Positions 33,952-58,999 of a DNA stretch of 64,000 bases are shown piece by piece. The notes beneath the pieces are model-generated. The model did no database searches. It saw only the letters and a list, made by a program, of their open reading frames with translations, and was not told the origin of the DNA. The translations under genes were made by a program, and so were the position numbers. This DNA comes from a virus: positions 1-64,000 of the IMG/VR virus record IMGVR_UViG_3300015263_000599. The stretch is one strand, 5' to 3'. The number at the start of each line of letters is the position of its first letter. Within the stretch, counting starts at the first letter, position 1.

Positions 33952-34482
33952 ATGGACAAAACACTGATCATCATGCGGGGACTCCCGTGGACCGGGAAAT
34001 CCTATCGAGCAAAAGAACTGGCAGGCGACGACGGACTGATTTTCAGTACCGATGACTATTGGTACGAAGTCAATAAACCGGACAAGCCCGACGAATACTC
34101 CTTCAACCCCCGGTTTTTGGGAGCCGCACACAAATGGAACATCCTGCGAGCACAGCGGGCAATCGACATTGCCACTCCGCTCATTATCATTGACAATACG
34201 AATACCACGGCATCGGAGCCTCAGCCCTACGTCCAGTATGCTGACTGGCAGGAATACAAAATTTGTATTGAGGAGCCGACCAGTGAACGGTGGCAAGAGA
34301 TTGCACAACTGCTCACCCGGAAACGTGACAACAAGAAGGAACTCAAGCAGTGGGCCGAAAAGCTCGCTGAAGGAAGCAAGGAAACCCACAAAGTTCCAGC
34401 GTGGGCAATCGAACGAATGATGTGGCGGTGGCAATGTGGCCTTACCGTCGAACAAATTCTGGAATCCAAACCACCTCAGTAA
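33952..34482 (+). CDS. P-loop kinase (AAA_33 / N4BP2-like)
   Basis: IMRGLPWTGKS, STDDYW, IIDNTN, HKVP..AIERM. Confidence 0.85.
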   Translation: MDKTLIIMRGLPWTGKSYRAKELAGDDGLIFSTDDYWYEVNKPDKPDEYSFNPRFLGAAHKWNILRAQRAIDIATPLIIIDNTNTTASEPQPYVQYADWQEYKICIEEPTSERWQEIAQLLTRKRDNKKELKQWAEKLAEGSKETHKVPAWAIERMMWRWQCGLTVEQILESKPPQ

Positions 34483-34499
34483 ACCAAGGGAGGGAAGTC

Positions 34500-36362
34500 A
34501 TGAAGCGACTAACATCCGTTGTCGCAATGCTCGTCGCATTGTTCTGCGTGGGCAATGCCCAAGCACAACAGCAAACCGCCAAGGGCCTCATCGGTGATGT
34601 GGCTGTTGGGCCACCGCCGACAACCACAGGGGAAGTCAACGTCCCGATCATTCTGTGGGGCGGCGAAGCTGCAACTTTCTGGGCCAATGGTGGAGTTTCA
34701 ACAACCAACGACTCCATCTATGGTCAGTCCGGTCTCAAGATCAAGTTGACGCCGGGCGACGATTCCATTCAACAGGCGAGGGACTACATCAGCGGCAAGT
34801 CGCCAATGTATCGTGGCACCTATCGCATGGCGTGTCTCTTCGCCGAGCAATTCAACGCCGATGCTCGCACGAAACCCGTGATGATCATGCAACTCAGCTA
34901 CAGTCTGGGCGATCACATGGTTGCCGTTGAACAGATCAAGACGTTGAACGATTTGCTCAAGCCGCTCAATGGGAAGAAGGTGCGTGTCGCTCTGCAACAA
35001 GGCGGGCCGCACTTGGGACTCGTTGAAGACTCACTGAAGTCAGTTGGCGGCAAGTGGTCAGACATCGAAGTTGTCTGGACGAAGAACCTCACAGGGGATG
35101 ACAGCCCGGCTGCTGCGTTGCGAGAAGGCAAATGCGATGTGGCTTGTGTTGTCACGCCTGACATGATCGGCCTTTGCTCTGGCATCGACCAGAAAGGTTC
35201 TGGTGCTGAAGGTACTGTCAAGGGATCGCATGTCGTTAACTCGACAGCCACGATGAGCCGCTCGATTGCCGACGTGTACCTTGTCCGCAAGGACTTCTTT
35301 GATGCCAACAAGGAGTGGGTGCAGAAATTCGTCACCGGCTACTTGAAGGCAACCGAAGCTGTCGTCACGGCTCGCAAGGATTACAGCGAGAGCAAGAAGG
35401 TTCCTCAGTACACAACCGTCATGACTCAGATGCAGACGTTCTTTGGAGCGGAAGCTCTGCCGACGATTGAAGAAGATGTTCACGGATTGATTCTGGACTG
35501 TGCCTTCGCACGCATCCCCGGCAACGAAGTCTTCTTCAACGACTCCAACAATCTGACCGGCTTCGCTGCCAAGCAGACTTCTGGTTTGCAACTCGCCGTC
35601 GATCTCGGGTACTCGACTCAGAAGTTGGGATTCGAGACTGCTGGGTGGGATTACAAGGCAATCTCAGAAGCGGCTGGCGTGAAGTACGTCAAACCCGTCT
35701 ATGCGACAGGCCGTATTCGAGCCGAGGTTGCGGACTTTGGGAACGACTTGGATAGCTCGACGATTTTCTCGTTCGAGATCAACTTCCAGCCTGAACAGAC
35801 GACGTTCTCGCTGGAGACATACGCTTCCGACTTCAAGCGGTTCTGTGAAGCACAGGCCACTTACGGAAACGCAGCCATCATCATCGAAGGCCACTCCGAC
35901 CCTACGCTGGCACTCCAGCACTTCTATTGGTCGGCTCGGGCGGCAGGTTTGTTGACTGGCGACAACGGCCAGTACAAATTCAACGGACAACCTCTATCGC
36001 TGACGGAAACGTCTGCCATCATCAATGCCATCCAGAACACCAATCTGGCAGGTCAGAGACGTGTGGATAGTGATGGCAAGACGGTAGAAATTCCTGATCC
36101 GAAGACAACCGTTGCGGCGGCTCTGACACTTTCTCAATCACGAGCGACTTCTGTGAAGAAAGCGATTGAGGAGTTCGCCAAGAACAGTGGCTACCAAATT
36201 GACCTGTCGGCAGTGTTGCCGCACGGCGTCGGCATTGCTCAGCCCATCAACGCTCGTCCTCGAAACATGGCTCAGGCCAAGGAAAACATGCGAGTGGTTT
36301 TCCGAGTGGTTCGTGTCAAGGCTGAAGCTCTGTCCGAAGATGACTTCAACTTCGACAAATAA
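34500..36362 (+). CDS. Secreted substrate-binding (NMT1/SsuA-like) protein with C-terminal OmpA-like domain
   Basis: Signal peptide AQA|Q; IADVYLVRKDF; INF...IIIEGHSD...LSQSRATSVK...NMRVVF. Confidence 0.8.
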   Translation: MKRLTSVVAMLVALFCVGNAQAQQQTAKGLIGDVAVGPPPTTTGEVNVPIILWGGEAATFWANGGVSTTNDSIYGQSGLKIKLTPGDDSIQQARDYISGKSPMYRGTYRMACLFAEQFNADARTKPVMIMQLSYSLGDHMVAVEQIKTLNDLLKPLNGKKVRVALQQGGPHLGLVEDSLKSVGGKWSDIEVVWTKNLTGDDSPAAALREGKCDVACVVTPDMIGLCSGIDQKGSGAEGTVKGSHVVNSTATMSRSIADVYLVRKDFFDANKEWVQKFVTGYLKATEAVVTARKDYSESKKVPQYTTVMTQMQTFFGAEALPTIEEDVHGLILDCAFARIPGNEVFFNDSNNLTGFAAKQTSGLQLAVDLGYSTQKLGFETAGWDYKAISEAAGVKYVKPVYATGRIRAEVADFGNDLDSSTIFSFEINFQPEQTTFSLETYASDFKRFCEAQATYGNAAIIIEGHSDPTLALQHFYWSARAAGLLTGDNGQYKFNGQPLSLTETSAIINAIQNTNLAGQRRVDSDGKTVEIPDPKTTVAAALTLSQSRATSVKKAIEEFAKNSGYQIDLSAVLPHGVGIAQPINARPRNMAQAKENMRVVFRVVRVKAEALSEDDFNFDK

Positions 36363-36434
36363 TCATTCCTGTCCCCGTGCCGCAGTCACCCGCACGATTA
36401 GCTGCGGCACGGAGGACAGTTTCAGGAGACCCAC

Positions 36435-36842
36435 ATGGCAACTTCAACCAAACCTATGATCCCCACCAAAGTCAAGCTGATTGGCGGCGGCATTCTGCTG
36501 GTCTTGCTGATCGGCTTGGGATATATCAAACTCGGCAACGTCACCTATTCAGAGGGCGAGCGGTCGGGCGTCATCACCAAGTTTTCCCACAAAGGGATGA
36601 TGGTCAAAACGTGGGAAGGCGAACTGAACATGGGCGGCTTCGATCAAGGTGGAGTCGCAAGCGTGTGGCAGTTCAGTGTTGATGACCCTGAAGTTGTCAC
36701 AAAGCTTCAAGAAGCTCAACGGGCCGGTGGTCGATGGACCCTGCATTACCGCCAACAGTTCATGGCTCAATCATGGAAGGGACAAACCGACTATTTCGTC
36801 ATCGGGGTTGAACCCGCTGGCAATAACCCGAACCAACGCTAA
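36435..36842 (+). CDS. Single-TM hypothetical protein (YSEGERSG...KTWEGEL family)
   Basis: N-terminal TM, small extracytoplasmic domain. Confidence 0.75.
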   Translation: MATSTKPMIPTKVKLIGGGILLVLLIGLGYIKLGNVTYSEGERSGVITKFSHKGMMVKTWEGELNMGGFDQGGVASVWQFSVDDPEVVTKLQEAQRAGGRWTLHYRQQFMAQSWKGQTDYFVIGVEPAGNNPNQR

Positions 36843-36857
36843 GGAAGGGAGTTCGAC

Positions 36858-37787
36858 ATGAGAAGTCTGATCCTCGCCGCCTTGGTGGTTTTAACTACCA
36901 GCGTGGCTCAAGCTCAGCAAACCGATTCAATCGTCATCGTGCTCGACACCTCGGGTTCGATGGGCGATTCAATGAGTGGTGGCAAGACTCGAATGCAGGT
37001 GGCTCAGGATTCACTGATCACCGTGTTGAAGAATACGCCACCCACTACAAAAGTTGGAATCCTCACCTTCGAGGGGTGGATTTATGATCTCCAGAAGGTC
37101 AACCAGCAACAACTTGAAGCGGCGATCCGAAGCACACGACCGGGCGGCGGAACACCGTTGTATGAGTACCTTCGAGCGGGCGCAACCCGGTTGCTTGAAG
37201 AGCGACAGTCGCAGAATAACACCGGTTACTACAAGTTGATTGTCGTCACCGATGGACAGGCTGGTGATGATAGCCTGAACCGTGAGAGTCGGTTCTCAGA
37301 TGGATCGACAAAGCCCGGCGTTCTGACAGACATCATCAGCCGCAATCTGATCGTGGATGTCATTGCACTCGACATGGGCGAAGACCATGACCTGATGAGG
37401 CTGAACAACGGTGCCGACATGAAGGGGAACGACCCTGCCAGTCTCACTTCATCGATCCGTAAGGCCGTCGCTGAGGTTGGTTTCGGCAACCAGAAAGACA
37501 CGTCCGAATCTGCCTTCAAGGAATTGGACGGACTGCCTGACGATTTCTGTCTGGCTGCCATCAAAGGACTGACGACATTCCGCAATCATCCGATTGGAGA
37601 GAAGCCGCCAGTTCCGATTGTGCAAGCAGATGGAACAGTGACGATGCAGCCCGATCCTGCCAACGAAGCTGTTCCACCGCCCGGAGAGGGTGGGGGAATC
37701 GGAGGCATCCTTTTGATTGTCCTTGTCGCAGGGGTAGGAATTGTCTTCTTCCTTGTGATCCTCACCAAAGCAGGCCGGGGGTACTAA
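36858..37787 (+). CDS. VWA-domain membrane protein
   Basis: Signal peptide, DTSGSM MIDAS, GGTPL, VVTDG, C-terminal TM. Confidence 0.9.
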   Translation: MRSLILAALVVLTTSVAQAQQTDSIVIVLDTSGSMGDSMSGGKTRMQVAQDSLITVLKNTPPTTKVGILTFEGWIYDLQKVNQQQLEAAIRSTRPGGGTPLYEYLRAGATRLLEERQSQNNTGYYKLIVVTDGQAGDDSLNRESRFSDGSTKPGVLTDIISRNLIVDVIALDMGEDHDLMRLNNGADMKGNDPASLTSSIRKAVAEVGFGNQKDTSESAFKELDGLPDDFCLAAIKGLTTFRNHPIGEKPPVPIVQADGTVTMQPDPANEAVPPPGEGGGIGGILLIVLVAGVGIVFFLVILTKAGRGY

Positions 37788-37790
37788 ACC

Positions 37791-39347
37791 ATGAGCGATG
37801 ACACGACGATGACGAAAGCACGCATCGTGGCAATGGCGATGATCTGGTTTTTCATCCTCGGTATCGTCGTGGTGGCGTGGAAGTTCTGGTGGGCTCCTCG
37901 ACAGCAGGAGATTGCTCAGAACGAACAGGAGCAGCACGAGCAAGAAGTGCTGGACAGAACCAGTTCACAAAGCCGCTACAAGTACGAACTCAACTGGGCG
38001 ATGGACGGGTTTTCCGGCTACGCCCCGTTCCGAAGCCAGATGTTTCGTGATGAGATGGGTCGCTTCGGCGGCAAAGTCAACATCATTGATGACAAGGCCA
38101 ACTACACCGAACGTCTGGGCAACCTCCAGAGCGGCAAGGTGGACATGGCTGTCTTTACCATCGACGCCCTTTACAAAGCATCCGCAGAGTTGGGAGACAT
38201 CCCGGCCACGATTGTCGATTTCATCGATGAGACCAAGGGCGCAGATGCCATGGTCGGGCCGGGAGGATTATTCCCCAACATTGACTCCCTCAACGATCCT
38301 GATTTGAAGATTGTTTGCACTCCCGATTCGCCATCGGAGACGCTGGCACGGGTGGTGATGGCATACTTCAACCTGACCCACATCTCGGACAAGAACTTCG
38401 AGTTCGTTGATGGGGCAGCAGCGGTGTTCGACGCATACAAGAATTCGAAACCCACAGACAAGAAAGTCTTCGTGTTGTGGGAACCTTACGTCAGCCGCAT
38501 TGTGTCCAACCCTGACTACCATGTCATTGTGGACTCATCGAAATTCCGTGGCTACATCGTCGATGTCATTGTGGTCAACAGAGACTTTCTGGTGAAGCAC
38601 GAAGACATGGTGACGGAAGCCGTTAAGGCATATCGAACAACGATCTTCAACAACCGTCGTTCGCCCGACATGGTTGCATTGGTGCAAGCAGATGCTCAAC
38701 AAATTGGTGAGCCGGTGACTCAGGATCAGGCTGTGAAGTTGGTTGGAAACATTTGGTGGAAGAACACACAAGAGAGTTTCGGCCACTTCGGTTTGACCAG
38801 CGGCACAGGGCTGCAACACATCGAGGATATCTGCAACAACATTGCTCGTGTGCTGGTGCGAACTGGTGCCATCCAAAGTGATCCGACAGGTGGGCAACCC
38901 AACAAGTTGTACTACGATGGCATCATGCGGAAGTTGTTCGACTCATCATGGCATCCCGGATTCGCTCAAGAGACGGTGCGGAAAGAGAAGACTCTTGCCG
39001 TGCTGTCGGACGACGAATGGAAAGCCTTGAAGCCAGTCGGAACCTTACAAGTTCCACGACTGGTGTTTGCCAGAGGAACGGAACGCCTCTCAGATCGCAG
39101 CTTTGCGACACTCGACGAACTGGCAAACAAGCTGGAGTCGTGGCCGCAATACTACTTGGTTGTGAGAGGCAACGTGTCTTCCGAAGGAGATGTGGATGCC
39201 AACCGCCAGTTGGCCCAATCTCGTGCAGATGCTACTATCGAGTATCTGGTTGGGAAGGGCGTGGCCCGACAGCGAATCCATGCTGAAACCAGTCATCCCA
39301 ACGGTTCTTCTACAGTGGCCTTCATTCTGGGCGAAGTGCCGTACTAG
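37791..39347 (+). CDS. Membrane-anchored substrate-binding protein with OmpA-like domain
   Basis: N-terminal TM, DETKGADA, LWEPY, IVDVIVV; C-terminal ANRQLAQSRADA. Confidence 0.82.
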   Translation: MSDDTTMTKARIVAMAMIWFFILGIVVVAWKFWWAPRQQEIAQNEQEQHEQEVLDRTSSQSRYKYELNWAMDGFSGYAPFRSQMFRDEMGRFGGKVNIIDDKANYTERLGNLQSGKVDMAVFTIDALYKASAELGDIPATIVDFIDETKGADAMVGPGGLFPNIDSLNDPDLKIVCTPDSPSETLARVVMAYFNLTHISDKNFEFVDGAAAVFDAYKNSKPTDKKVFVLWEPYVSRIVSNPDYHVIVDSSKFRGYIVDVIVVNRDFLVKHEDMVTEAVKAYRTTIFNNRRSPDMVALVQADAQQIGEPVTQDQAVKLVGNIWWKNTQESFGHFGLTSGTGLQHIEDICNNIARVLVRTGAIQSDPTGGQPNKLYYDGIMRKLFDSSWHPGFAQETVRKEKTLAVLSDDEWKALKPVGTLQVPRLVFARGTERLSDRSFATLDELANKLESWPQYYLVVRGNVSSEGDVDANRQLAQSRADATIEYLVGKGVARQRIHAETSHPNGSSTVAFILGEVPY

Positions 39348-39364
39348 GAGTTTGGGGATGTTCA

Positions 39365-40102
39365 ATGAGCAAAGATTTACGCAAGCAGATTCTACTCGAC
39401 CTGTTTATCACGCCAGCGACGGTGATCCCATTCCTGATCGGAGGGACGCTGTTGATGCTGTCGGCGATACTGGGCGGGTACTCGGCATTCCTTGGGTTTG
39501 TCGGGATTCTCCTGTCTTTTGGAGCTTTGTTGACTAACTGGGTATTCAACCTCGGAAAGATCAGCCGCAACGCCGTGAAGCGGTTGCACCAACAGGAGAA
39601 ACAACAACGAGAAGCGGAACTAGATGCCCTCGATGCAAAACTCGTAACGAATAAAGATCCACGGGATCAAACGGCTCTGCGAAATCTGCGAGCTTTATAC
39701 AACTCGTTCTGTGACGATTTGCATGACGGCAAGGTCACTCGCAATGTGCCTCCAAAGCTGTTGCAGTTGATCGAAGAAATTTTCGGCGAGTGTGTGACCA
39801 ATCTGAGTCGTGCATGGGACATCTGGAACACCTCTCGCAGCCTTCAAGGCGATCTCAAAGAGAAGCTCTTGGAGCAGCGAGAAAACCTGATCGTAGAAGT
39901 TGAGAGCAGTGTCCACATCTTGGCAGAAACGATCAACGAAGTTCGGGCGTTGAAGCTGAAGACTGATGCGGGTGAAATGGAGCGTTTGAGGCAGAAACTT
40001 GTGTCTCAATTGCAGGTCGCTAAAGCGACAGAAGAAAGCGTGGCGTCACTCGACGCAGAACTCAACTCGAAGAGTTACGACGAGTACGCCGATTACAAAT
40101 GA
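39365..40102 (+). CDS. 2-TM coiled-coil protein (XpaC-like architecture)
   Basis: Two N-terminal TMs then helical bundle. Confidence 0.7.
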   Translation: MSKDLRKQILLDLFITPATVIPFLIGGTLLMLSAILGGYSAFLGFVGILLSFGALLTNWVFNLGKISRNAVKRLHQQEKQQREAELDALDAKLVTNKDPRDQTALRNLRALYNSFCDDLHDGKVTRNVPPKLLQLIEEIFGECVTNLSRAWDIWNTSRSLQGDLKEKLLEQRENLIVEVESSVHILAETINEVRALKLKTDAGEMERLRQKLVSQLQVAKATEESVASLDAELNSKSYDEYADYK

Positions 40103-40176
40103 GTTGACCTTTACAGGCCAGTCTCGATCCCTACAATGGATCGGATGGCATCGCACGACAAAAGGAGATTGCGACG

Positions 40177-40968
40177 ATGGGACGATACTTCAAAGCCCTC
40201 TGGTACATGTTGACCGGGCGATTCAGTGCAGCAGCCGACGCACTGCAAAGCAACAAGTATGTGATGGCGGCGACCTACGACAAGTCGATTGAGAAAGGTG
40301 CGGATCGTTTCAATACGGTGAAAGACGCCGTAGCGAAGCTGATGAGCATCGAGCAAGATCGGGTGGCTACCATCAAGACGCTCTCGGGGGATGTCGAGAG
40401 TCTGACGAAGAAGATGAATGGCGCACAAGTCGCCATGCAGAAGCGAATCAACGCTCTCAAAGCCGAGGGCAAGACCAAGGAACAAATCGAGGCCGATGCC
40501 GAGTTCATCAAGCATCGTGGGGCCTTCATGGATATGAAGTCCACGATTGCTGAGAAGGATGCCCGGATCGGCGAACTCGAAGAAGACCTGAAGAACCGTC
40601 GCCAGCAGATCGCCACCTACAAGGCAGAACTGCAACAGATGCAACGTCAGCAAGCTTCTCTCAAAGAAGAGAAACACGAAGCTCTGGCCGACGTGGCGAT
40701 TGCCGAACAGGCAGAAGCCATCAACTCTGTGCTGGCCGGTATCTCAGAAGACACTACAGACAAGGATTTGCAAGCAGCACGAGAAGCTCGTAAGGCAGCC
40801 AAAGCCAAAGCGGCAATCACCTCCGAACTGGCAGGTAACGATGCACGGCTGGCCGAGAACGAGTACCTTCAGTATGCTGCTGAATCTGAAGCTGACAGCG
40901 AGCTTGATGATCTGCTCGACTGGGGCGAGAGCGATTCGGAAATGAAGGATGTGCAAATCCCCGAGTAA
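40177..40968 (+). CDS. PspA/IM30-like coiled-coil protein
   Basis: N-terminal amphipathic helix MGRYFKALWYMLTGRF, long coiled coil, ELDDLL tail. Confidence 0.65.
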   Translation: MGRYFKALWYMLTGRFSAAADALQSNKYVMAATYDKSIEKGADRFNTVKDAVAKLMSIEQDRVATIKTLSGDVESLTKKMNGAQVAMQKRINALKAEGKTKEQIEADAEFIKHRGAFMDMKSTIAEKDARIGELEEDLKNRRQQIATYKAELQQMQRQQASLKEEKHEALADVAIAEQAEAINSVLAGISEDTTDKDLQAAREARKAAKAKAAITSELAGNDARLAENEYLQYAAESEADSELDDLLDWGESDSEMKDVQIPE

Positions 40969-41032
40969 CTCAAGCCCAATCGACACGACCGGATGTTCCG
41001 GTCGAAACATCACCTACAAGGAGTGAAGGACA

Positions 41033-42157
41033 ATGAAGCGAATTGCAATTTTTGGAATGTTGCTCGCTGTGACAACCCTCATCGGTTGCGGCGGCAACGA
41101 CGGTGGCGATGCTGCCCCCGACAACAGCGGAGAACAGGCCAGCGGCCAAACCGGACAAACCAGCAACGACAGCTATCCAGCGTTTGTCCACACAGCGTCA
41201 GAGTATCCCTCGTGGTCAACCTTCATGGTGGCCGCAAAAGCAGGGCTCATCAATCCCGAGCAGGGCGGTCAGCACGGCACTCTGGAAACCAAGTACGGCG
41301 TCGATGTCGTGCTTCAGGTGAAGGACTACGATCCGTGCATCACCCTCTATGCCAACGGCACCTGTGATTCAACGTGTATCACCAACATGGATGCCCTGAA
41401 TCCCGCCATGGGACGCAAGACAACGATCATCATGCCGACCAGCACCTCAGCCGGTGCCGACAAGGTGATTGCTGTGGGCGCAACATCCATTGACGATCTG
41501 AAGGGATTGACCACCTACGGTCTGGCGAAGAGTGTCAGCCAATACTGCTTTGTGCGAGGTTTGCAGACGCAAGGTCTCAATCCGGCTGATTTCCAGTTCA
41601 AGAATCTCGATCCTGCCCCGGCTGCTACTGCTTTGCAGACTGGCAGCGGCGACGTGAAGGCGATCTCTGTCTGGAATCCGTTTGCCCTTCAGACTCTCCG
41701 CACCAACAAGGACGCCAAGGAAATCTTCTCGTCCACGACGATCCCAGAAGAGATCATCGACTGCGTGGTGATCGGCAATGATTCGTTGGAGAAGCCCAAG
41801 GGCAAGGAGTATGCTGCCTGCCTTTGCGAAATCTTCTATGAAGTCAACAAGCGTCTGAACTCTTCGGACAGCAGTGTCTCTGACGCCACACTGACGGCGT
41901 TGGGCGAAGACTTCTCGAAGCTACCTCTCGAAGACATGCGAATCGTCGTGCAGGAAACTCGATTCTACGGAACGCCTGCTGCCGGTATCGCTCTGTTCGA
42001 GAATCAGAAGTTCCAGACGCAGACCATGCCCACTGTGATCACGACATGCCAGCAGATCGGCGTGCTCGAAGAAGGACAGCAGCCTACTGTCGGCTTCAAT
42101 GACGACAGCAAGCAACTCAACTTCACGACGGAGTTCATGCGTCAGGCATCTCAGTAA
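41033..42157 (+). CDS. ABC transporter substrate-binding lipoprotein (NMT1/SsuA-like)
   Basis: Lipobox LIGC; TNMDAL, STSAGAD, VWNPF, IPEEIID. Confidence 0.85.
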   Translation: MKRIAIFGMLLAVTTLIGCGGNDGGDAAPDNSGEQASGQTGQTSNDSYPAFVHTASEYPSWSTFMVAAKAGLINPEQGGQHGTLETKYGVDVVLQVKDYDPCITLYANGTCDSTCITNMDALNPAMGRKTTIIMPTSTSAGADKVIAVGATSIDDLKGLTTYGLAKSVSQYCFVRGLQTQGLNPADFQFKNLDPAPAATALQTGSGDVKAISVWNPFALQTLRTNKDAKEIFSSTTIPEEIIDCVVIGNDSLEKPKGKEYAACLCEIFYEVNKRLNSSDSSVSDATLTALGEDFSKLPLEDMRIVVQETRFYGTPAAGIALFENQKFQTQTMPTVITTCQQIGVLEEGQQPTVGFNDDSKQLNFTTEFMRQASQ

Positions 42158-42339
42158 GGGCCAATAGCTCAGCGGTAGAGCACTCGTTGATTTCGTGGAG
42201 TATGCGTGACCGAGCTTGGTAAGGTGCGTGATTCTTCACGGTACGGACTTAAAAAGCCGTGGGAAGTTCGAATCTTCTCGCCAATGCTGTGCGAAATCGA
42301 TGAGAAGGGGGTGGGTTCGAGCCTCACCTTGGTCCACCA
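42158..42339 (+). ncRNA. tRNA-like RNA with a nested second tRNA-like domain in place of the anticodon loop
   Basis: Outer acceptor GGGCCAA/TTGGTCC-A-CCA, D arm GCTC/GAGC, T loop TTCGAGC; 14-bp stem leading to an inner cloverleaf with its own D arm, T loop TTCGAAT and long variable arm. Confidence 0.8.
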
Positions 42340-42345
42340 AACACC

Positions 42346-42382
42346 AAGCCCGTCCGTCCCAAGCGACGGGCGGGCTTTTTTG
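42346..42382 (+). terminator. Intrinsic terminator after the tRNA-like RNA
   Basis: AAGCCCGTCCGTC...GACGGGCGGGCTTTTTT. Confidence 0.8.
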
Positions 42383-42443
42383 CTAAACCCCTCTCCAAAT
42401 TATCCTTACAATGCTGATGACCTCATAACGAAGGAAACCGGAT

Positions 42444-43391
42444 ATGTTGGGCGGCTTACTCGCAGGGATTGTTCTCATCCTTTTGGGATGGCTGCTCGTT
42501 GTGTTCAGCGGTTCTGGACGGATCAAGCAACATCTTACGACTCGCAGCAAAATCATTTGGGGAGTCGCAGGTGTCTCTGTGCTGGCTGTGACCTATAGCT
42601 GGCTCTCTTTTCGCCAACACGAACGCAACCCCGACGACACCACGATTCCGACATTCAGTCAGTTGGCACATGGGTTCATGCGAACCGTCACGCCATCTTC
42701 CGACGACAAAGAGAACGCTTTACGAGTGGCCTTCGGCCAACCCACGCAAGAGAAAACTTTCTGGCAGAAAGTTCAATCGACTTGGCTCTATCAAGACTCT
42801 GTGGCGACTTATGGTCGTCTCATCAAAGGTCTAGTGTGGGGCTGCATGTTGTCCATTGTTCTCGGCACACTCATGGGATGCTACGAGTGGCTAGGGAGTT
42901 TCCTGTTGCCTCCGCTTGCTCTGCTTGCCAAGACGCCGGGGACAGCCATGCTGGCCGTCTTCTTTGTGATCGTCGGCACTGGCGAGCCAATGTTCATTAC
43001 GATGATTGGCTTCGGGGTTCTCCCGACGCTGACACAAACGATCTACTTGGCGGCGAAGGACGATCTTCATAGAGAGCAGATCGATAAGGCATATACGCTC
43101 GGTGCGGACAACACTGAACTTGTATGCAATGTCGTGTTTCCTCAGATACTTCCGAAGGTGATCGACAGCGTGCGATTGCAAATCGGGCCAGCTATGGTAT
43201 TCTTGATTGCCGCCGAAATGTTGGTCGGCGATGTCGGCATGGGATACCAAATCCGAATGCAGCAAAGGCTGCAACAGATGAACATCGTTTACAACTACTT
43301 GTTCTTGCTAGGGATCACCGGTCTGCTTATGGATCAAGCCATGATTCGTCTGCGGCAATGGTTGTGCCCGTGGTTCGACATCAAAAGGTAG
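42444..43391 (+). CDS. ABC transporter permease (SsuC/TauC-like)
   Basis: Multiple TMs, AYTLGA EAA-like loop, LIAAEM..GMGY. Confidence 0.9.
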   Translation: MLGGLLAGIVLILLGWLLVVFSGSGRIKQHLTTRSKIIWGVAGVSVLAVTYSWLSFRQHERNPDDTTIPTFSQLAHGFMRTVTPSSDDKENALRVAFGQPTQEKTFWQKVQSTWLYQDSVATYGRLIKGLVWGCMLSIVLGTLMGCYEWLGSFLLPPLALLAKTPGTAMLAVFFVIVGTGEPMFITMIGFGVLPTLTQTIYLAAKDDLHREQIDKAYTLGADNTELVCNVVFPQILPKVIDSVRLQIGPAMVFLIAAEMLVGDVGMGYQIRMQQRLQQMNIVYNYLFLLGITGLLMDQAMIRLRQWLCPWFDIKR

Positions 43392-43394
43392 GTC

Positions 43395-44357
43395 ATGTCG
43401 GTGAACAACATAGCGTTAAACATCAAAGGTGTCAGTCAGTGGTTCGGCGATAACCGTGTGCTGTACGACATCAATCTGAAAATCGTGCAAGGTCAGTTCG
43501 TCGCACTCGTAGGAGAAAGCGGATGCGGAAAGAGCACTTTGCTTCGTGCCATTCTCGGGACTCTCCCGCCCAAGGAAGGCACCATCGAAACTGACGGAAT
43601 TCCCGTCACTGGCCCCAACCACAACGTCGGCGTCGTCTACCAGCATTACGACTTGTATGATTGGATGACAGCCGAGAAGAACGTCGCCTTCGGCCCCATG
43701 CTGCATCAGACCAGCATTTGGAATCGCACGTTCGGGTTCTTGAAATGGATGAAGTTGCGAAAGCAACACTTGGCGCAAGCGAGGGACATGCTGACTCGCT
43801 TCCGACTTGGCAACGCATATGATCGCTATCCTGCCGAGCTTTCGGGCGGGATGCAACAGCGGGTGGCGATTGCCCAAGCCCTCATCATGAAGCCGAAGAT
43901 TTTGCTTCTTGACGAGCCCTTTGGGGCTTTGGATGAGGCGACCAGAGAGGAACTGCAAGGGGTTCTTCTCATGCTCTATGCCGAAAACATGGAAGCTCGC
44001 AAGCGTGGTGAGATGCCGCCGTGGACGGTGATGATCATCACACATGAGCTTGATGAAGCCTTCTATGTGTCTGATCGAGTGATAGGACTCTCTCGACAGT
44101 GGTATGAAGACACCGACACGGGCCGCAAGGAAGGCAAGGCGTGCGGTGCAACTAAAGTCTGGGACAAATCCGCTCCCGTTTATCACCCTGACGATGAGCG
44201 TGACTTCAGCAGGTTCCACGATGCCAAGCTGGAGTTGCGAAGCAAGGTGATCAAAGCGGAGGCTCCCATGGAACGATCCGAACATGTCTCATTTTGGTCC
44301 GACCTAGAAAACGGAGTCGGATCAGGAGTCGCATTCACAAGGAGTCCTCATGTCTGA
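43395..44357 (+). CDS. ABC transporter ATP-binding protein (SsuB/TauB-like)
   Basis: GESGCGKS, LSGGMQQR, LLLDEPFGALD, ITHELDEA. Confidence 0.95.
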   Translation: MSVNNIALNIKGVSQWFGDNRVLYDINLKIVQGQFVALVGESGCGKSTLLRAILGTLPPKEGTIETDGIPVTGPNHNVGVVYQHYDLYDWMTAEKNVAFGPMLHQTSIWNRTFGFLKWMKLRKQHLAQARDMLTRFRLGNAYDRYPAELSGGMQQRVAIAQALIMKPKILLLDEPFGALDEATREELQGVLLMLYAENMEARKRGEMPPWTVMIITHELDEAFYVSDRVIGLSRQWYEDTDTGRKEGKACGATKVWDKSAPVYHPDDERDFSRFHDAKLELRSKVIKAEAPMERSEHVSFWSDLENGVGSGVAFTRSPHV

Positions 44358-44910
44358 TTCAGTCGCCACGCCCGAAAGTTCCCTCAAATCGTTCGCAGAA
44401 TCGTGTGCGAATCTATTGGTGGAACTCAATGAGCGAGTCGTGTTCGCTGAAAGCTGCACGGGTGGAATGTTGAGTTCCACACTGGCCGGGGTTCCCGGCA
44501 TTTCGAGTTACCACTGTGGTTCATTGGTGACTTATCGTCCAAATTCAAAGAGACGCTGGTTGGGAGTCAACAAGTCCACCATCAACCAGTACACCACCGA
44601 AAGCAATGAAGTGGTGGAAGAGATGGCGTTGGGGGCTCTCAAGATGACTCCCGAGGCCAGTTGGTCGGTCGCCATCGTCGGACATCTGGGGCCAGATGCG
44701 CCCAAAGACAAGGACGGCCATGTGTGGATCGCCATTGGTCGTCGTTCACGGAAAGGCAACCTCAAGGTGAAGTCGATTTCCGAGCATGTCCTCGCTGGCA
44801 CAGATCGCATTCTGCGTCAACGGGCTGCCACAGAGACCGCTCTCACCCTGTTTTCGAGAGCCTTGGTGAACAAGTCGAGCAAAGACAATGGCAAGCGTCG
44901 GACGGCTTAA
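44350..44910 (+). CDS. pncC: CinA C-terminal / PncC NMN deamidase family
   Basis: FAESCTGG, PGIS, VTY..SK, EMALGA, GHLGP, GHVWIAI. Confidence 0.88.
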   Translation: MSDSVATPESSLKSFAESCANLLVELNERVVFAESCTGGMLSSTLAGVPGISSYHCGSLVTYRPNSKRRWLGVNKSTINQYTTESNEVVEEMALGALKMTPEASWSVAIVGHLGPDAPKDKDGHVWIAIGRRSRKGNLKVKSISEHVLAGTDRILRQRAATETALTLFSRALVNKSSKDNGKRRTA

Positions 44911-45298
44911 AGAGATCGCCGAGCGGCAAATCCGCTCATGGCCTTTGTACGCCGACCGTCACAAAATTTGTGTTCGTGACATTGGGAACGGTGTCTGGCT
45001 GGGGTATCGAACATCCCCGTCCAACATCACCCATGGGACAAGCCATTTCGATGTCAACATCATTGGCAATGTCTTCTATGTCCTGTCTATCGCCGTCGCC
45101 CCAGAGGGGCGTGGCAAGGGGCACGGAGCGGCCCTCTACAGGGTCTTAGAAGACATCGCCTCGGAATGGGGTTGTCGAAGAGTCCAGATGACTCCCTCTG
45201 GATGTACATCAACTGGCGAAAGCCGAAAGGATTATCTGCTGCGACGAGGCTACAAGCCCTACGGCGACAGCGAAGTGATAAAGGTGCTGCATGACTGA
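44888..45298 (+). CDS. GNAT acetyltransferase
   Basis: IAVAPEGRGKGHGAALY...RRGY. Confidence 0.8.
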   Translation: MASVGRLKEIAERQIRSWPLYADRHKICVRDIGNGVWLGYRTSPSNITHGTSHFDVNIIGNVFYVLSIAVAPEGRGKGHGAALYRVLEDIASEWGCRRVQMTPSGCTSTGESRKDYLLRRGYKPYGDSEVIKVLHD

Positions 45299-45614
45299 GC
45301 AACGCAAACCCTTCACGCCCAAGCAGGCGGAAGACAAGAAGATCGAGGTCATTCCCCCTCAAGTCATCGAGGCTTTCGAGGAACTGATCGTCGAGAATCT
45401 CAGAGGCGGCACCGCCACCATCAAACAAGATGATGTGGTCAATCGGATTCACGAGAAGATGACAGGCGTGAAGACCCAAGAGATGTTCGACAAAGGATGG
45501 CTGGATGTCGAAGATCTCTTTCGCAAGGCTGGGTGGGAGGTCGAGTATGACAAACCCGGTTTCAATGAATCGTACCCGGCCACCTTCACCTTCTCGAAAA
45601 AGAGGAAACGATGA
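45291..45614 (+). CDS. Hypothetical phage protein
   Basis: 107-aa coupled ORF. Confidence 0.75.
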   Translation: MTEQRKPFTPKQAEDKKIEVIPPQVIEAFEELIVENLRGGTATIKQDDVVNRIHEKMTGVKTQEMFDKGWLDVEDLFRKAGWEVEYDKPGFNESYPATFTFSKKRKR

Positions 45615-46582
45615 GTAAGGAAATCGCAATCGTCATCGGCTACAATGCTGCCGGGAAAAGTACACTCGTGCGAGAGTTCGAGCAGGACGGATATCATCGA
45701 ATCAATCGTGACCTAACGGGCGGGACCATCGAGGCGCAGGTCGAGCTTGCTCGCAAAGCGTTAACGACCCATGACAGGGTTGTATTGGACAACACCTACC
45801 CCACGATTGAGAGTCGTGAGTCAATCGTGGCCCTCGGCCAACAAATGGGAATTCCCGTTCGCTGCGTTTGGCTCACGACATCTTTTGAAGACGCCCAACT
45901 CAATGCTTGTCTTCGCATGATGGAGCAGAGAGATCAGCTTCTCATGCCAGAGGATTTCAAGAAAGAGAAGAGTCCCAATCTCTTCCCGCCTGTCGCCCTC
46001 TTCACCTACAAGAACAAGTTCGAGAACAAGAAGGGCGAGCAGAAGCATCCCGGCAAGCAAGACCCCAAGAAAGAACACGGGTTCTTTGTGGTCGAAAAAC
46101 GCCCGTTCGTTCGCCAGTGGCCTGCGGAGTTCTGCAACAAGGCTTTGTTGCTCGACTACGACGATACGTTAAGGCGAAGCAAGGGCGATAAGAACTGGCC
46201 CGAGAAACCAGAAGATGTGGAGATCCTTCCGAACCGCAAAGAGGTTCTGGACGAGTATGTGGCTAATGGATGGAGGTTGCTGGGCGTCAGCAATCAGTCG
46301 GCCATTGCCAAGGGTCTTAAACGAGAAGACGCCGTTGCGTGCTTCGAGCGGACCAACGAACTTCTGGGGCACGACATCGAATACATGTTCTGTCCTCATC
46401 AAGTGCCGCCTGTGAATTGCTACTGTCGCAAACCACATCCGGGGATGGGAGCACACTTCATCTGGAAGTATAAGTTGCTGCCGAGTGCTTGTATTATGGT
46501 CGGCGACCAAACTTCTGACAAAACATTTGCGTCCCGATGCGGATTCGTGTATAAAGAAGCCGAAGAGTTCTTCGCTCTTTAA
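45611..46582 (+). CDS. Polynucleotide kinase/3'-phosphatase (AAA_33 + HAD-IIIA)
   Basis: GYNAAGKS, INRD, VLDNT; DYDDT, VSNQS, CRKPHPGM, MVGD..SD. Confidence 0.9.
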   Translation: MSKEIAIVIGYNAAGKSTLVREFEQDGYHRINRDLTGGTIEAQVELARKALTTHDRVVLDNTYPTIESRESIVALGQQMGIPVRCVWLTTSFEDAQLNACLRMMEQRDQLLMPEDFKKEKSPNLFPPVALFTYKNKFENKKGEQKHPGKQDPKKEHGFFVVEKRPFVRQWPAEFCNKALLLDYDDTLRRSKGDKNWPEKPEDVEILPNRKEVLDEYVANGWRLLGVSNQSAIAKGLKREDAVACFERTNELLGHDIEYMFCPHQVPPVNCYCRKPHPGMGAHFIWKYKLLPSACIMVGDQTSDKTFASRCGFVYKEAEEFFAL

Positions 46583-51473: not shown

Positions 51474-52778
51474 TTGTGCGGAGATGGCACCATGCTGCGA
51501 CCCATGCCTGCGAAATACGGTATCGGATTCACCTCACCAGAGCCCGTGGCTCCCGATCTGGTGGAAGGCTACCGGTATGAGCAGACAGGAAATCACCACA
51601 ACTACTTCGTCACCCCTCAGCGGTGGGATTGGCCCGAGAGATTCGATTTCGGGTCCGTCGCTCCGGTCATTGATGGGTTCTCTCCGAACCTCAATAAACA
51701 GTTGCACGTTGGGCACTTACGCAACCTTGCCCTCGCCAACTCCCTCTCTCGCATCCTGAAGAACGCAAAATTTGTATCGCTGCTTGGATGCAGTCTTGGA
51801 GTGCGTTTCGCAGCCCTCGAAGGCTGGAAGTATTGGACGGAATTCTTGGGGTTCCAGCCGGAAGTCTACTATGACTGTGCTCTGCCCGACGATCTGATCC
51901 CAACCAGAGAGCCAACAGTTGCCGAGGTTGAATCAGACCTAATCGATCCCAATGAAGGCGACGATCTGACATTGCCGGAATTATGGGATGGCCCCAATGG
52001 TCCGGTGATCGTTAAGCGATCCGACAAGCGACCACTCTATGCCTATCACGATCTGGCGTTCGCTCAGATCGTTGGTCCCGATCACTACATCACAGGCGAA
52101 GAACAAAAGATTCATTTCGCTTCGTTAGGTCTGGGTGACAAACACTTGCCAATGGGTTTGGTGTTGGGACTTGACGGCAAGAAGATGAAGTCTCGTGAAG
52201 GCGATGTCCTTCTGGCAACCGAGGCTGTGCAGATGGTTAAAGAGCATTTGCGACAAACACAGCACGCTGATCAACTGGCGTGGAACATTCTTGCTTGGAA
52301 CTTTTTACACACGGCCCGAAAGTCGAATCTGAAGTTTGAGGCTGAAAAATGGACGCAGCCAGATTCACCGGGAATGTACATCAGCTACACTTACGCTCGG
52401 ACGTGGAACGCATTGGAAGAAGCGGTCCCCCTTCGCAACCCCATTCCGATTGGCCCCTTTTATGGATTCGACCCGGATTACTTGAAAATCCTGAAGCGTT
52501 CGGGTTCCACTGTTGATACGGAAATCACAGAGATCGATCTCGACCTGTTAGGTCTTTCTGAGCAATACATCTTCTACTACCAGCAAGCCATCGAACGACT
52601 CGATCCGGCACCGGTTGCGAATTACGCTCATGACTTAGCCCGCCTAATCGGCGTGGCGTATGAGAGGGAGCGAATTCAAGAGGGTCGCCCTGTCTTCCAG
52701 CGTGCAATGGCACATGCGATCTGGCGTCTGGAACACTGCTTGCAAGATCTTGGCATGTTCAAGCTCCAAACAGTCTGA
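51474..52778 (+). CDS. argS: Compact arginyl-tRNA synthetase-like protein
   Basis: FSPNLNKQLHVGHLRN (HIGH), KRSD..PLY..DLA, GEEQ..HF, GKKMKSREG, YISYTYAR and DALR-like C-terminus; start uncertain. Confidence 0.85.
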   Translation: MCGDGTMLRPMPAKYGIGFTSPEPVAPDLVEGYRYEQTGNHHNYFVTPQRWDWPERFDFGSVAPVIDGFSPNLNKQLHVGHLRNLALANSLSRILKNAKFVSLLGCSLGVRFAALEGWKYWTEFLGFQPEVYYDCALPDDLIPTREPTVAEVESDLIDPNEGDDLTLPELWDGPNGPVIVKRSDKRPLYAYHDLAFAQIVGPDHYITGEEQKIHFASLGLGDKHLPMGLVLGLDGKKMKSREGDVLLATEAVQMVKEHLRQTQHADQLAWNILAWNFLHTARKSNLKFEAEKWTQPDSPGMYISYTYARTWNALEEAVPLRNPIPIGPFYGFDPDYLKILKRSGSTVDTEITEIDLDLLGLSEQYIFYYQQAIERLDPAPVANYAHDLARLIGVAYERERIQEGRPVFQRAMAHAIWRLEHCLQDLGMFKLQTV

Positions 52779-56038: not shown

Positions 56039-57142
56039 ATGCTCACACGAGACAAGATCAAAGGTATGCTCATTGGCGGGGCCATCGGGGACGCATGGGG
56101 CATGGGCGTAGAGACTTGGACGCCCGAGAAGATCCTAGAAGTGCATCCCAATGGTCTTCCTCGTTTTGTTGCGCCCATCGGCCACAAGTGGTTCGATCCA
56201 GAAAAACATCCACCGGGAACCACCACCGACGACACACAACTCACAATTGCTACCATGCGGGGACTGCTGGATGGAAAGGCCGCTGCGGACCAGTCCCGCA
56301 GCTTCGATGATTTCATGGACGCCATCGCCAAAGCCCACTGCGAAGCCATGCAGGAAACGGATGCTGGGTGGGGCAACACAACCCGTGAGGCCATCAGGCG
56401 GCTCCAGAACGGCGTCAGTTGGCGTGTATCTGGCAAGACCAGTGAGCGGCATCGAGGCACCGGCAATGGCATCCCCATGAAGATCTCTCCACTCGGAGCG
56501 TGGTATGCGACCCCTTATGGGGCTGATCTTTGTGACGCAAAGCAGGGTTTCAATCAACGCTGCGTCGAATACTCGGCGATGACCCATTACACACAGATGT
56601 CGGCTCAGGCTGGAATCATCCATGCCCACGCCGTCTTCTTCTGTCTGTGGTCTTCGCCAGAGCGATTCCACCGTGACGACTTCTTCGATCTCGTTTCGGA
56701 TTGCGTCTGGGAATGGGGCGAAGGCAAAACAGAGGCAGATCGCAACGATCACACCTTCTACGATGTCTCGCACCTCAATGAGACCGAAGACAATCTGAAG
56801 GATCAGTTCGTCAAGTTGTGGCAGTTCCGGGACGAAATGACCGACGAGAAGATTCACGAACTCTTCGGTCCCGGCTCGTGCTATGTCTATGAGAGCCTGC
56901 CGTTCAGTTACGCATGGTTCTTGCGTGACTGGTCGTCAATGCAAATTTTGCAACGGGTCGTTGAGGCTGGGGGAGACACCGATACCAACGCCAAAATGGT
57001 CGGGGAAATGCTGGGAGCGTTGCACGGCATGTCCTTGTTCGAGCGAGAAGAAAACAAGTGGGCCATCGAAGATCTCGATGACACCGTTTACACGCTTGTC
57101 GATCTCGCCGACGAATTCTGTGACGCTTTCGGGATTGAATGA
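56039..57142 (+). CDS. ADP-ribosylglycohydrolase (DraG/ARH family)
   Basis: GAIGDAWG, TTDDTQ, GNGIPMK, MTH, GGDTDT..MVGEMLGA. Confidence 0.92.
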   Translation: MLTRDKIKGMLIGGAIGDAWGMGVETWTPEKILEVHPNGLPRFVAPIGHKWFDPEKHPPGTTTDDTQLTIATMRGLLDGKAAADQSRSFDDFMDAIAKAHCEAMQETDAGWGNTTREAIRRLQNGVSWRVSGKTSERHRGTGNGIPMKISPLGAWYATPYGADLCDAKQGFNQRCVEYSAMTHYTQMSAQAGIIHAHAVFFCLWSSPERFHRDDFFDLVSDCVWEWGEGKTEADRNDHTFYDVSHLNETEDNLKDQFVKLWQFRDEMTDEKIHELFGPGSCYVYESLPFSYAWFLRDWSSMQILQRVVEAGGDTDTNAKMVGEMLGALHGMSLFEREENKWAIEDLDDTVYTLVDLADEFCDAFGIE

Positions 57143-57914: not shown

Positions 57915-58308
57915 CTTGAAGGTCGCATTTGGGATGGGGATGATGGTAGCCGTTTTCCTCAAGGCTTTCTTCTCCATCGCCTTCGGGACGGGTTTTGCGC
58001 CGATGCTGGTGGCTCTGAATGGAATAGGATTCATCATCGGATTGTTTCTTGCGGTGTGGGGAACCAGCGGGTCACGCTATCTCGGGCAAGTTGCCGCCGC
58101 ATCGCTCATGGCCCCGGTGTCCGCACTGTGGGCTCTTTACGTTTTCCAACATTACCCTTTGGGTATTCGGGACAAGGTGGACGGCCTGACGTATGCTTGG
58201 GTCCATCTGCAAGTTCATCGGGACTTGTACATTTTTCCGATCCTCATGTTCTCAGGAGCCTTATTGCTCGCTGCTTGGAAGCCAAAGTCAAATGAAACGG
58301 TTCAGTGA
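57892..58308 (+). CDS. 4-TM membrane protein
   Basis: Hydrophobic ORF. Confidence 0.7.
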   Translation: MSQFKTRDLKVAFGMGMMVAVFLKAFFSIAFGTGFAPMLVALNGIGFIIGLFLAVWGTSGSRYLGQVAAASLMAPVSALWALYVFQHYPLGIRDKVDGLTYAWVHLQVHRDLYIFPILMFSGALLLAAWKPKSNETVQ

Positions 58309-58999
58309 TCAAAAACGAGTTCTGCCAGCGTTCCCCCGAACGCCGCATCTTCCGTGGAGCCAAAACACAGAAGATGACGATCTCATTGCGGAACAAGCTG
58401 AACTTCAACCGTTGTTCGATAATCCGGTCAACGTCGAAGAGAAAATCGATGGTGCCAGCGTTGGTATGACATTCTGGCAAGGCCACCCCCTCATTCGTAA
58501 CCGTGACCACATACTTCGTAAGGGGTATGTGAAAGACACACCGGCGAAGAAGCAATTCGCCCCCATCTGGAACTGGTTCTACGATAACCAGAAAAAGTTT
58601 GAGTACATTCTGAGCCATGGGCCGCTTAGTGTGTATGGGGAGTGGATGGTCGCTCGCCACGGCATCTACTATGACCGGCTTCCAGATTTGTTCATCGCCT
58701 ACGATGTGTACAACTACGAGGCCGACTACTTCCTCTCGCCAACCATCGCTCGTCCAATGCTCGAAGAGTGCGGCTTCGCCATCCCTCGCCTGTTTCATCA
58801 AGGCGACCCCCTTCCCTCGGAACTTCCCGACTGGATCAACTCACAAGGGCAGTGGTGCGATAGCGTCGTAGAAGGTCTGTACTTCAAGGTTCACAATGGC
58901 GAACGAATCACTCACCGATTCAAACAAGTGAGTGATCAGTTTGTGCGTGGGCAGTTTTGGGACGGAAAGACGTTGCTCAAGAACGGAGTCGCCAAATGA
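58292..58999 (+). CDS. ATP-dependent RNA ligase family protein
   Basis: FPRTPHLPWS, EEKIDG (motif I), YGEW, FIAYDV, EGLYFK, RFKQV. Confidence 0.88.
   Translation: MKRFSDQKRVLPAFPRTPHLPWSQNTEDDDLIAEQAELQPLFDNPVNVEEKIDGASVGMTFWQGHPLIRNRDHILRKGYVKDTPAKKQFAPIWNWFYDNQKKFEYILSHGPLSVYGEWMVARHGIYYDRLPDLFIAYDVYNYEADYFLSPTIARPMLEECGFAIPRLFHQGDPLPSELPDWINSQGQWCDSVVEGLYFKVHNGERITHRFKQVSDQFVRGQFWDGKTLLKNGVAK

Follow-up and report, generated by a model that had tools for sequence, protein, structure and literature searches.

A non-decoding 182-nt RNA with a tRNA-shaped domain in the place of its anticodon loop, encoded in a phage transporter cassette

The window, that is the whole stretch of 64,000 nucleotides analysed here, belongs to a 94,452-bp IMG/VR virus record. 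The record encodes a DnaB-like helicase, a short family-A polymerase, a RecA-like protein and DEAD-box and ResIII-type helicases, together with a gp32-like protein and an HNH endonuclease. By its gene content the replicon is a large phage fragment with cargo genes like those of Pirellulales planctomycetes. An envelope and transport cassette occupies positions 34401-44357 of the + strand and comprises two fusions of a substrate-binding protein (SBP) to OmpA, a VWA protein, two unknown proteins, an SBP, a permease and an ATPase. Most or all of this cassette, from the OmpA-fusion gene to the ATPase, is shared in syntenic order by several related uncultured phage contigs (L185/L186, L007, L003, and L009), with 50-69% protein identity. 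The SBP of the transporter is encoded in identical form by two other contigs, and its cellular homologues are found in Pirellulales and other Planctomycetia MAGs.

The TAA stop codon of the SBP gene (42155-42157) directly adjoins, with zero spacer, the first base of a 182-nt RNA that has the shape of a tRNA carrying a second tRNA (Table 1). The RNA is followed by an intrinsic terminator, which had already been noticed in an initial annotation made from the letters of the sequence and which we could place exactly. No promoter-like site was seen on the + strand at the locus. The zero spacer after the stop codon, the absence of such a promoter-like site and the strong terminator after the CCA indicate that the RNA would be co-transcribed with the SBP gene, and the terminator is predicted to end this SBP plus RNA transcript.

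Further along the record lies a set of genes related to RNA repair and NAD (44350-46582, 56039-57142, and 58193-58999), which encode CinA/PncC, GNAT, Pnk-like, ADP-ribosylglycohydrolase and PF09414 ligase proteins. A kinase-phosphatase of the Pnk kind is an RNA end-healing enzyme. The + strand also carries, at 51474-52778, a 434-aa open reading frame that resembles a divergent and shortened arginyl-tRNA synthetase; it has HIGH and KMSK-like motifs, matches the argS model only in part and has no N-terminal domain. A link of the RNA to this nearby gene was considered and rejected, since ArgRS reads the anticodon and A20 and the RNA has no anticodon. At the contig end, the last ~50 bases of the record (L032:10400-10452, - strand) correspond to the T arm, acceptor strand, A73 and CC of an ordinary tRNA, of which only the 3' half is left. 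As the record ends inside a partial tRNA, the phage's own tRNA array probably lies beyond the contig end; two relatives of the phage have tRNA arrays, of 19 and 7 genes.

Table 1. Positions of the 182-nt RNA, its parts and the neighbouring features in the window.
Feature	Positions	Strand	Basis or remark
NitT/TauT-type substrate-binding protein (SBP) of the phage-borne ABC transporter	41033-42157	+	Homologue names
Composite tRNA-shaped RNA, 182 nt (outer body, connector helix and inner domain)	42158-42339	+	Sequence, RNAfold, pair check
Outer 5' part: acceptor strand, U8-A9, D arm, nt 26	42158-42182	+	Sequence, RNAfold
Connector helix, 5' strand (first 5 nt are the outer anticodon stem)	42183-42197	+	RNAfold, pair check
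Inner class-II-like tRNA-shaped domain	42199-42288	+	Rfam tRNA model, relaxed ARAGORN, pair check
Connector helix, 3' strand	42290-42304	+	RNAfold, pair check
Outer 3' part: variable loop, T arm, acceptor strand, A73, CCA	42305-42339	+	Sequence, RNAfold, pair check
Intrinsic terminator, 13-pair stem then T run	42346-42377	+	Terminator scan of the locus
ABC transporter permease (42444-43391) and ATPase (43395-44357)	42444-44357	+	Downstream, same transporter as the SBP
Polynucleotide kinase-phosphatase, T4 Pnk layout (kinase N-terminal, HAD phosphatase C-terminal)	45611-46582	+	Context only
RNA ligase (PF09414)	58193-58999	+	Context only; no solved relative by sequence

When the nested double cloverleaf was written out explicitly, all 57 of its 57 pairs were standard (49 Watson-Crick and 8 G.U, with no mismatch) and its energy was -65.5 kcal/mol. 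RNAfold, unaided, returned the outer acceptor stem, D arm and T arm, the connector helix of 15 bp and, capping this helix, a closed multi-branch inner domain. The minimum free energy was -72.2 kcal/mol as compared with -57.8 ± 4.2 in dinucleotide shuffles (z = -3.41), and none of 200 shuffles equalled it. The minus strand (reverse complement) reached only -49.1 (z = -1.42), and since it folds this poorly the structure is specific to the + strand. No pseudoknots were predicted in the RNAfold run on the 182-nt RNA. The elbow nucleotides (G18, G19, and T54-C56) were found in both domains along with acceptor, D and T arms, and in each domain the T loop and the GG motif of the D loop are unbroken. 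The nested double cloverleaf claimed in the initial annotation was therefore recovered in every listed element at its place, and folding gave back the nesting itself. Read from the sequence, the RNA is made of two host-like tRNA bodies set head-to-tail, the inner one occupying the position of the outer anticodon loop.

The outer acceptor stem pairs 42158-42164 with 42329-42335, and the outer D arm (42167-42181) has a canonical 4-bp D stem with A14, G18, and G19 in its loop. On the 3' side, a variable loop (42305-42309) is followed by the T arm (42310-42328, loop TTCGAGC), whose stem has 6 bp (42310-42315 / 42323-42328), giving an acceptor/T stack of 13 bp rather than 12. This 6-bp T stem might hinder interactions with RNase P, CCA or EF-Tu. 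The acceptor end presents G1:C72, G2:C71, and G3:U70 (G42160.T42333, positions 3:70), with C:G at 4:69, A73 at 42336 and an encoded CCA at 42337-42339; the features that the initial annotation had singled out here, G3-U70, A73 and the CCA, are all in place. G3:U70 is reportedly the major determinant for AlaRS, and from the sequence of this acceptor end (G3:U70, A73, G1:C72, G2:C71, and CCA) AlaRS would probably be expected to charge it. The first 25 nt of the outer 5' part are almost identical to Pirellulales tRNA-Lys and tRNA-Met, so the outer body, as judged from its sequence, is not descended from tRNA-Ala. Since it resembles a host Lys/Met-type tRNA and not tRNA-Ala, the G.U at 3:70 could be incidental; with 8 G.U among 57 pairs we put the chance of this, for a G.U in that orientation, at about 7%, and the pair may otherwise have been selected.

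In place of the outer anticodon loop there is a continuous helix of 15 bp with 11 Watson-Crick and 4 G.U pairs. The extension of the anticodon stem had been seen before, but its length had been given as 14 bp, one G.U pair too few. The connector joins the inner closing helix through a single 1x1 G.G mismatch, and ~24 bp thus form one rod. Ten of its pairs lie beyond an ordinary anticodon stem, and 3 of these 10 are G.U pairs that are workable only in the + strand RNA. The 10 added pairs could not come from the decay of a tRNA, and the earlier argument that preserved pairing speaks against simple decay is upheld by these strand-dependent pairs and by the full complement of standard pairs.

The inner domain is closed by a helix of 5+3 bp with a CA bulge (42199-42206 / 42279-42288). 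It contains a D arm (42209-42225) with a 3-bp stem and an 11-nt loop containing GG, a hairpin (42227-42240) with a 5-bp stem and a 4-nt loop TTCT, a variable arm of 4 bp (42243-42260) and a canonical T arm (42262-42278). Downstream of 42288, one unpaired G is followed by the connector strand, so that the insert, whose size is ~90-105 nt, is without a free single-stranded tail.

Standard detectors hardly see this RNA. ARAGORN at default settings reported 0 tRNA and 0 tmRNA genes, whether for the window or for the complete 94-kb record, and Rfam gave 0 matches at gathering thresholds, which leaves the RNA outside the known Rfam families, an assignment that the initial annotation had held to be adverse to its reading. 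In a permissive local Rfam scan the tRNA model (RF00005) matched the inner domain only (42200-42286), at 21.9 bits against a threshold of 29; the match spans the full model (positions 1-71) with a long variable-arm insertion. ARAGORN likewise detected the inner domain at a relaxed threshold only. The atypical or partial hits that had been anticipated from these programs were thus obtained for the inner domain, whereas default searches gave none. In intron mode ARAGORN called a tRNA-Glu(CTC) of 97 nt with an 85-nt intron, which we rejected as forced, for it cuts the inner T loop and arm and breaks the 15-bp helix.

Two architecture scans of IMG/VR were carried out, one for an outer D arm with a T loop 60-90 nt on and a second T loop 30-55 nt further, and one for the two T loops alone, which gave at least the matches listed. 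Both found many genuine nested tRNAs on unrelated contigs, a number to be read as a lower bound. In six of them (L034, L048, L170, L037, L042, and L183) a tRNA or minihelix, running from +1 to N73-CCA (CCC in L183), makes up the inner unit, and the exact deletion of this unit restores a 7-nt loop in 6 of 6, as judged by eye in L170 and L183. The restored loop is CU-NNN-AA in five of the six and CC-UUU-AA in L037, and the insertion points range from 33/34 to 36/37. Reduced, non-canonical inner domains with pairing between intron and anticodon were found at L033/65, L052/56, L053, and L075. At L051/L054/L069, L111, L057, and L044, removal of the inner tRNA leaves 6, 8 or 10 nt or no clean stem, and the inner tRNAs of L051/L054/L069 and L111 have A33 instead of U33. 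A conserved phage tRNA family on at least six contigs (L072, L117, L124, L157, L160, and L167) has a ~60-nt anticodon-loop insert with a 7-bp closing helix; this insert shows a T arm and then a D-arm-like hairpin, in permuted order, and its sequence varies. The only description found in the literature is that of Devoto et al. 2019 (PMC6784885, Fig. 4 and Table S6), who described "enigmatic introns" in tRNAs of Lak megaphages and wrote of one of these introns that it "itself may encode a tRNA." In the Lak intron of Table S6 a T arm is combined with a closing helix, and a T4 Rnl2-type ligase is encoded by the Lak phages (PMC6784885). No mechanistic paper was found. Neither the phage replicon nor membership in this recurrent class of tRNA-shaped inserts had been part of the initial annotation.

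Like the Lak tRNAs and the other members of the class, the 182-nt element belongs to a phage, has an outer tRNA body that is complete, with an insert in the anticodon-loop position, has as its second domain an acceptor-like closing helix on a canonical T arm, and shares its genome with an RNA ligase gene. By analogy, its architecture would descend from the phage class in which a tRNA-shaped insert sits in a tRNA anticodon loop. The differences are nevertheless clear. Inserts of the class end in a free N73-CCA-like tail, whereas that of the 182-nt element has none and its closing helix leads into a perfect connector of 15 bp. In the class, a 7-nt anticodon loop is obtained when the insert is removed exactly, whereas here no loop can be restored and the inner loop has 4 nt. 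The element lies in the 3' region of an mRNA and not in a tRNA array, and it has no sequence homology to the class. Both levels of the element look like anticodon-less tRNA-shaped elements rather than tRNA genes. The element is a real + strand gene, though a strange variant of the phage tRNA-shaped inserts. The insert architecture itself is not unique; the tail-less insert and the irrecoverable outer anticodon set the element apart.

A canonical anticodon arm (7-nt loop, U33, purine 37, and 5-bp stem) exists at neither level, the outer loop being a helix and the inner loop having 4 nt. The D arm and nt 26 leave only 42183-42187 / 42300-42304 for the outer anticodon stem. Nucleotide 33 of a rebuilt outer loop is G42189 if two or more 5' loop bases are kept and A if none or one is kept; as only G or A can come to stand there, U33 cannot be obtained by any excision. 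In a brute-force series of 777 trial excisions ARAGORN gave only forced calls, and a U33 anticodon loop was never restored. Calls of tRNA-Ile(GAT) in this series were rejected, as they have a 3-bp stem that absorbs nt 26, and U37. Since no excision restores a U33 loop and the inner loop has 4 nt, neither cloverleaf level can read codons, and the RNA is non-decoding, as had been supposed from the letters.

These results bear directly on the possibility of an intron-containing decoding tRNA, from which the inner domain would be spliced by cuts of the RNase P/Z type and by the phage Pnk and RNA ligase. Both enzymes are encoded in the record, and the geometry is that of the class, in the six members of which removal of the inner unit restores a 7-nt loop. 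However, with the outer stem fixed the wrong base always occupies position 33, and the trial excisions yielded nothing unforced. Removal of the insert by the rule of the class (which begins the insert at the closing helix's first base and ends it three bases past N73) leaves exons that form a 12-bp stem capped by 4 nt, and the insert has no single-stranded tail. As the leader and trailer of the inner domain are fully paired, we infer that neither RNase P nor RNase Z would set it free. A spliced tRNA is thus very improbable. Other intron types were also rejected: a group I intron needs a ribozyme core (P3-P9) and more than ~200 nt as compared with the ~90-105 nt of the insert, and no Rfam intron matched even at E <= 10, while an archaeal-type intron would have a bulge-helix-bulge where exon and intron meet, which is absent from a connector that is continuous over 15 bp and has only the 1x1 G.G mismatch at its end.

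The initial annotation had proposed a tag-less mini-tmRNA among the possible roles, which would enter stalled ribosomes with SmpB. The RNA does share with tmRNA the alanine identity set (G3:U70, A73, and CCA), a T arm and a long helix that replaces the anticodon arm, a combination that resembles the tRNA-like domain plus helix 2 of tmRNA. Yet neither the tmRNA mode of ARAGORN nor the permissive Rfam scan gave a tmRNA match, and the distal domain of the 182-nt RNA is tRNA-shaped and not mRNA-like. A canonical D stem is present and, together with the anticodon stem, fills the space that SmpB takes in tmRNA. The sole short frames of the inner domain that end in TAA (42220-42222 and 42250-42252) hold no tag-like sequence, so that there is no tag frame, and the pseudoknots of tmRNA were not predicted. 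An identity as tmRNA was rejected on these grounds, and the tag-less version proposed earlier did not survive them either, being the least probable of the explanations considered.

Two other systems invite comparison. YrlA, a bacterial Y RNA, is said to be a tRNA-mimicking module on a long stem that is bound by Rsr/Ro. Like it, the 182-nt RNA is a non-decoding tRNA mimic with unbroken D and T arms, a long helix and RNA-repair genes nearby. In YrlA, however, the termini of the RNA are found at the other end of the stem and the arm that resembles an acceptor is closed, whereas here the acceptor end is open and carries CCA. An identity as a Y RNA of the YrlA kind was rejected, given this different topology and the lack of an Rfam match, and no TROVE-domain protein was seen. 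Engineered tRNA scaffold RNAs have also reportedly been made, and in them, as here, the extended anticodon stem of a tRNA body carries a foreign structured RNA. Such scaffold RNAs are processed and stabilised by the tRNA machinery. The tRNA scaffold is artificial, whereas the 182-nt RNA is natural and its cargo is itself tRNA-shaped.

The conservation of the element was examined among related phage contigs, whose AAA ATPase shows 45-57% identity. In the contigs that share the cassette and in L187 the terminator hairpin follows directly after the SBP stop codon, and the RNA is absent. By this comparison of sequences the element is a lineage-specific insertion between stop codon and terminator, and because the syntenic relatives carry the terminator only, it is dispensable for the cassette. 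The spacer between the SBP and permease genes is ~60 nt in L185/L186/L007, ~310 nt in L003 (3605-3980) and ~800 nt in L009 (3580-4440), and, on these sequences, it is a site that gathers different insertions in different relatives.

A blastn search of the RNA gave no homologue at 29 syntenic or related loci, and in the phage database it gave only generic tRNA-Val 5' halves. A covariance model (R1) built from the 182-nt element itself had no match in 5 related phage records and found only ordinary 75-nt tRNAs (Lys, Met, and Trp) in 141 Pirellulales genomes. Among ~170 IMG/VR loci the nested tRNAs scored highest, with 38-49 bits over the full model as compared with ~40 bits for the best ordinary tRNAs, and none of these R1 matches was a sequence relative of the element. 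With the inner D and T loops as the motif, a scan met with a single chance match, which lies inside a coding sequence, and a scan for the outer 5' arm gave one truncated tRNA fragment and no homologue. On a viral contig other than this record (L217:1669-1693) a 25-nt tRNA 5' fragment is identical to the outer 5' arm and is followed by unrelated sequence; it looks, from its letters, like a truncated tRNA or an att remnant. There is no second copy of the element in the 94,452-bp record. The homologue search that had been proposed earlier therefore found none, and the element, absent from all syntenic relatives, is unconserved by the standard of the initial annotation itself. It is a singleton so far, and the syntenic relatives offer no covariation support.

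Set against the array tRNAs of related phages, each of the two domains was similar to them only at background level. A stretch of 21 nt that covers the inner T arm and four further bases (42262-42282) is exactly identical to a tRNA-Pro(CGG) of a Pirellulales genome (G060, L194). This identity may be a trace of origin or an att-like core, or it may be due to chance. Its reading as an attP site was rejected, for no integrase was present among the ORFs scanned and so short a match in a conserved arm may be fortuitous.

The singleton status of the element gives weight to the possibility that it is a functionless by-product, that is, an ectopic and degenerate nested copy of the (probably mobile) insert elements that is tolerated in a harmless 3' untranslated spot. 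Such an insert class exists and is widespread, no homologue was found in the loci, phage records and Pirellulales genomes searched, the relatives have their terminator directly after the stop codon, the SBP-permease spacer varies among them (~60, 310, and 800 nt), and an HNH gene lies 7 kb away. On the other hand, the 57 intact pairs with their 8 G.U and the strand-specific fold look like selection, although a very recent origin would look identical. Inserts of the class have a free N73-CCA-like tail and a host loop that can be restored, neither of which is true of the element, and the record holds no second copy. We regard an inert by-product as the main rival explanation, possible but somewhat doubtful.

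The position of the element also suggests a cis-acting role in the mRNA, in which RNase P would be recruited to cut after the SBP stop codon, or in which the RNA would be a protective structure at the 3' end, and which would set the ratio of SBP to permease and ATPase. The element abuts the stop codon, precedes the terminator and lies between the gene of a typically abundant SBP and those of the membrane components. Processing signals of tRNA-like shape at 3' ends are known, as in MALAT1/mascRNA, and so is the RNase P cleavage of operon mRNAs. But the relatives have the same gene arrangement with a plain terminator, and RNase P cleavage leaves the mRNA without a 3' hairpin. Moreover, a single tRNA shape would be enough for this purpose, and the encoded CCA, G3:U70 and the second domain are left unexplained. 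A cis-acting element is accordingly unlikely.

The explanation that we prefer, though only tentatively, is a stable non-decoding tRNA mimic, probably alanine-accepting, that derives from the insert class. It is favoured since the complete pairing of the nested structure, the 8 G.U pairs without any mismatch and the 10-bp extension of the connector suggest selection; taken at the level of sequence, this suggests that selection acts on the RNA structure. In the proposed mechanism the RNA would be transcribed as the tail of the SBP mRNA up to the terminator, RNase P would cut at G42158, right after the stop codon, and the 3' side would be trimmed to CCA42339. The inner domain would remain joined, as there are no single-stranded flanks where its closing helix passes into the connector. 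This would leave a stable RNA of 182 nt that has two tRNA elbows and a single free acceptor end, and AlaRS would be expected to charge that end on account of G3:U70, A73, G1:C72, and G2:C71. It would act through the acceptor end or the elbows and not by codon reading. Its preferred role would be to draw off, as a decoy or sink, those host factors by which tRNAs are attacked or sensed; it may alternatively be an aminoacyl donor. The idea of a decoy comes from the neighbouring genes related to RNA repair and NAD, and by this analogy of gene neighbourhood a phage decoy is perhaps to be preferred as the role of the RNA. In its most specific form, this explanation would make the RNA an alanine-charged, anticodon-less "double-elbow" mimic, domesticated from phage tRNA inserts, that works off the ribosome, either as a decoy that absorbs host defence enzymes directed at tRNAs (tRNA nucleases or modifiers of the acceptor end) or as an alanine donor for an envelope-modifying enzyme of the adjacent cassette; so specific a role has a rather low probability.

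Phage tRNA genes that are interrupted by tRNA-shaped inserts have hardly been described so far and still lack an explanation. The element presented here shows a possible endpoint of this architecture, in which all helices and both elbows are kept, both anticodons are gone, the location is outside a tRNA array and a free acceptor end is predicted to take alanine. If it is inert, it marks the ectopic landing of insert elements and bears on their mobility. Should it prove to be expressed and charged, a DNA phage would here possess a natural tRNA mimic that does not decode, and the element would bear on how phages counter tRNA-directed defences and on the uses of aminoacyl-tRNA off the ribosome.
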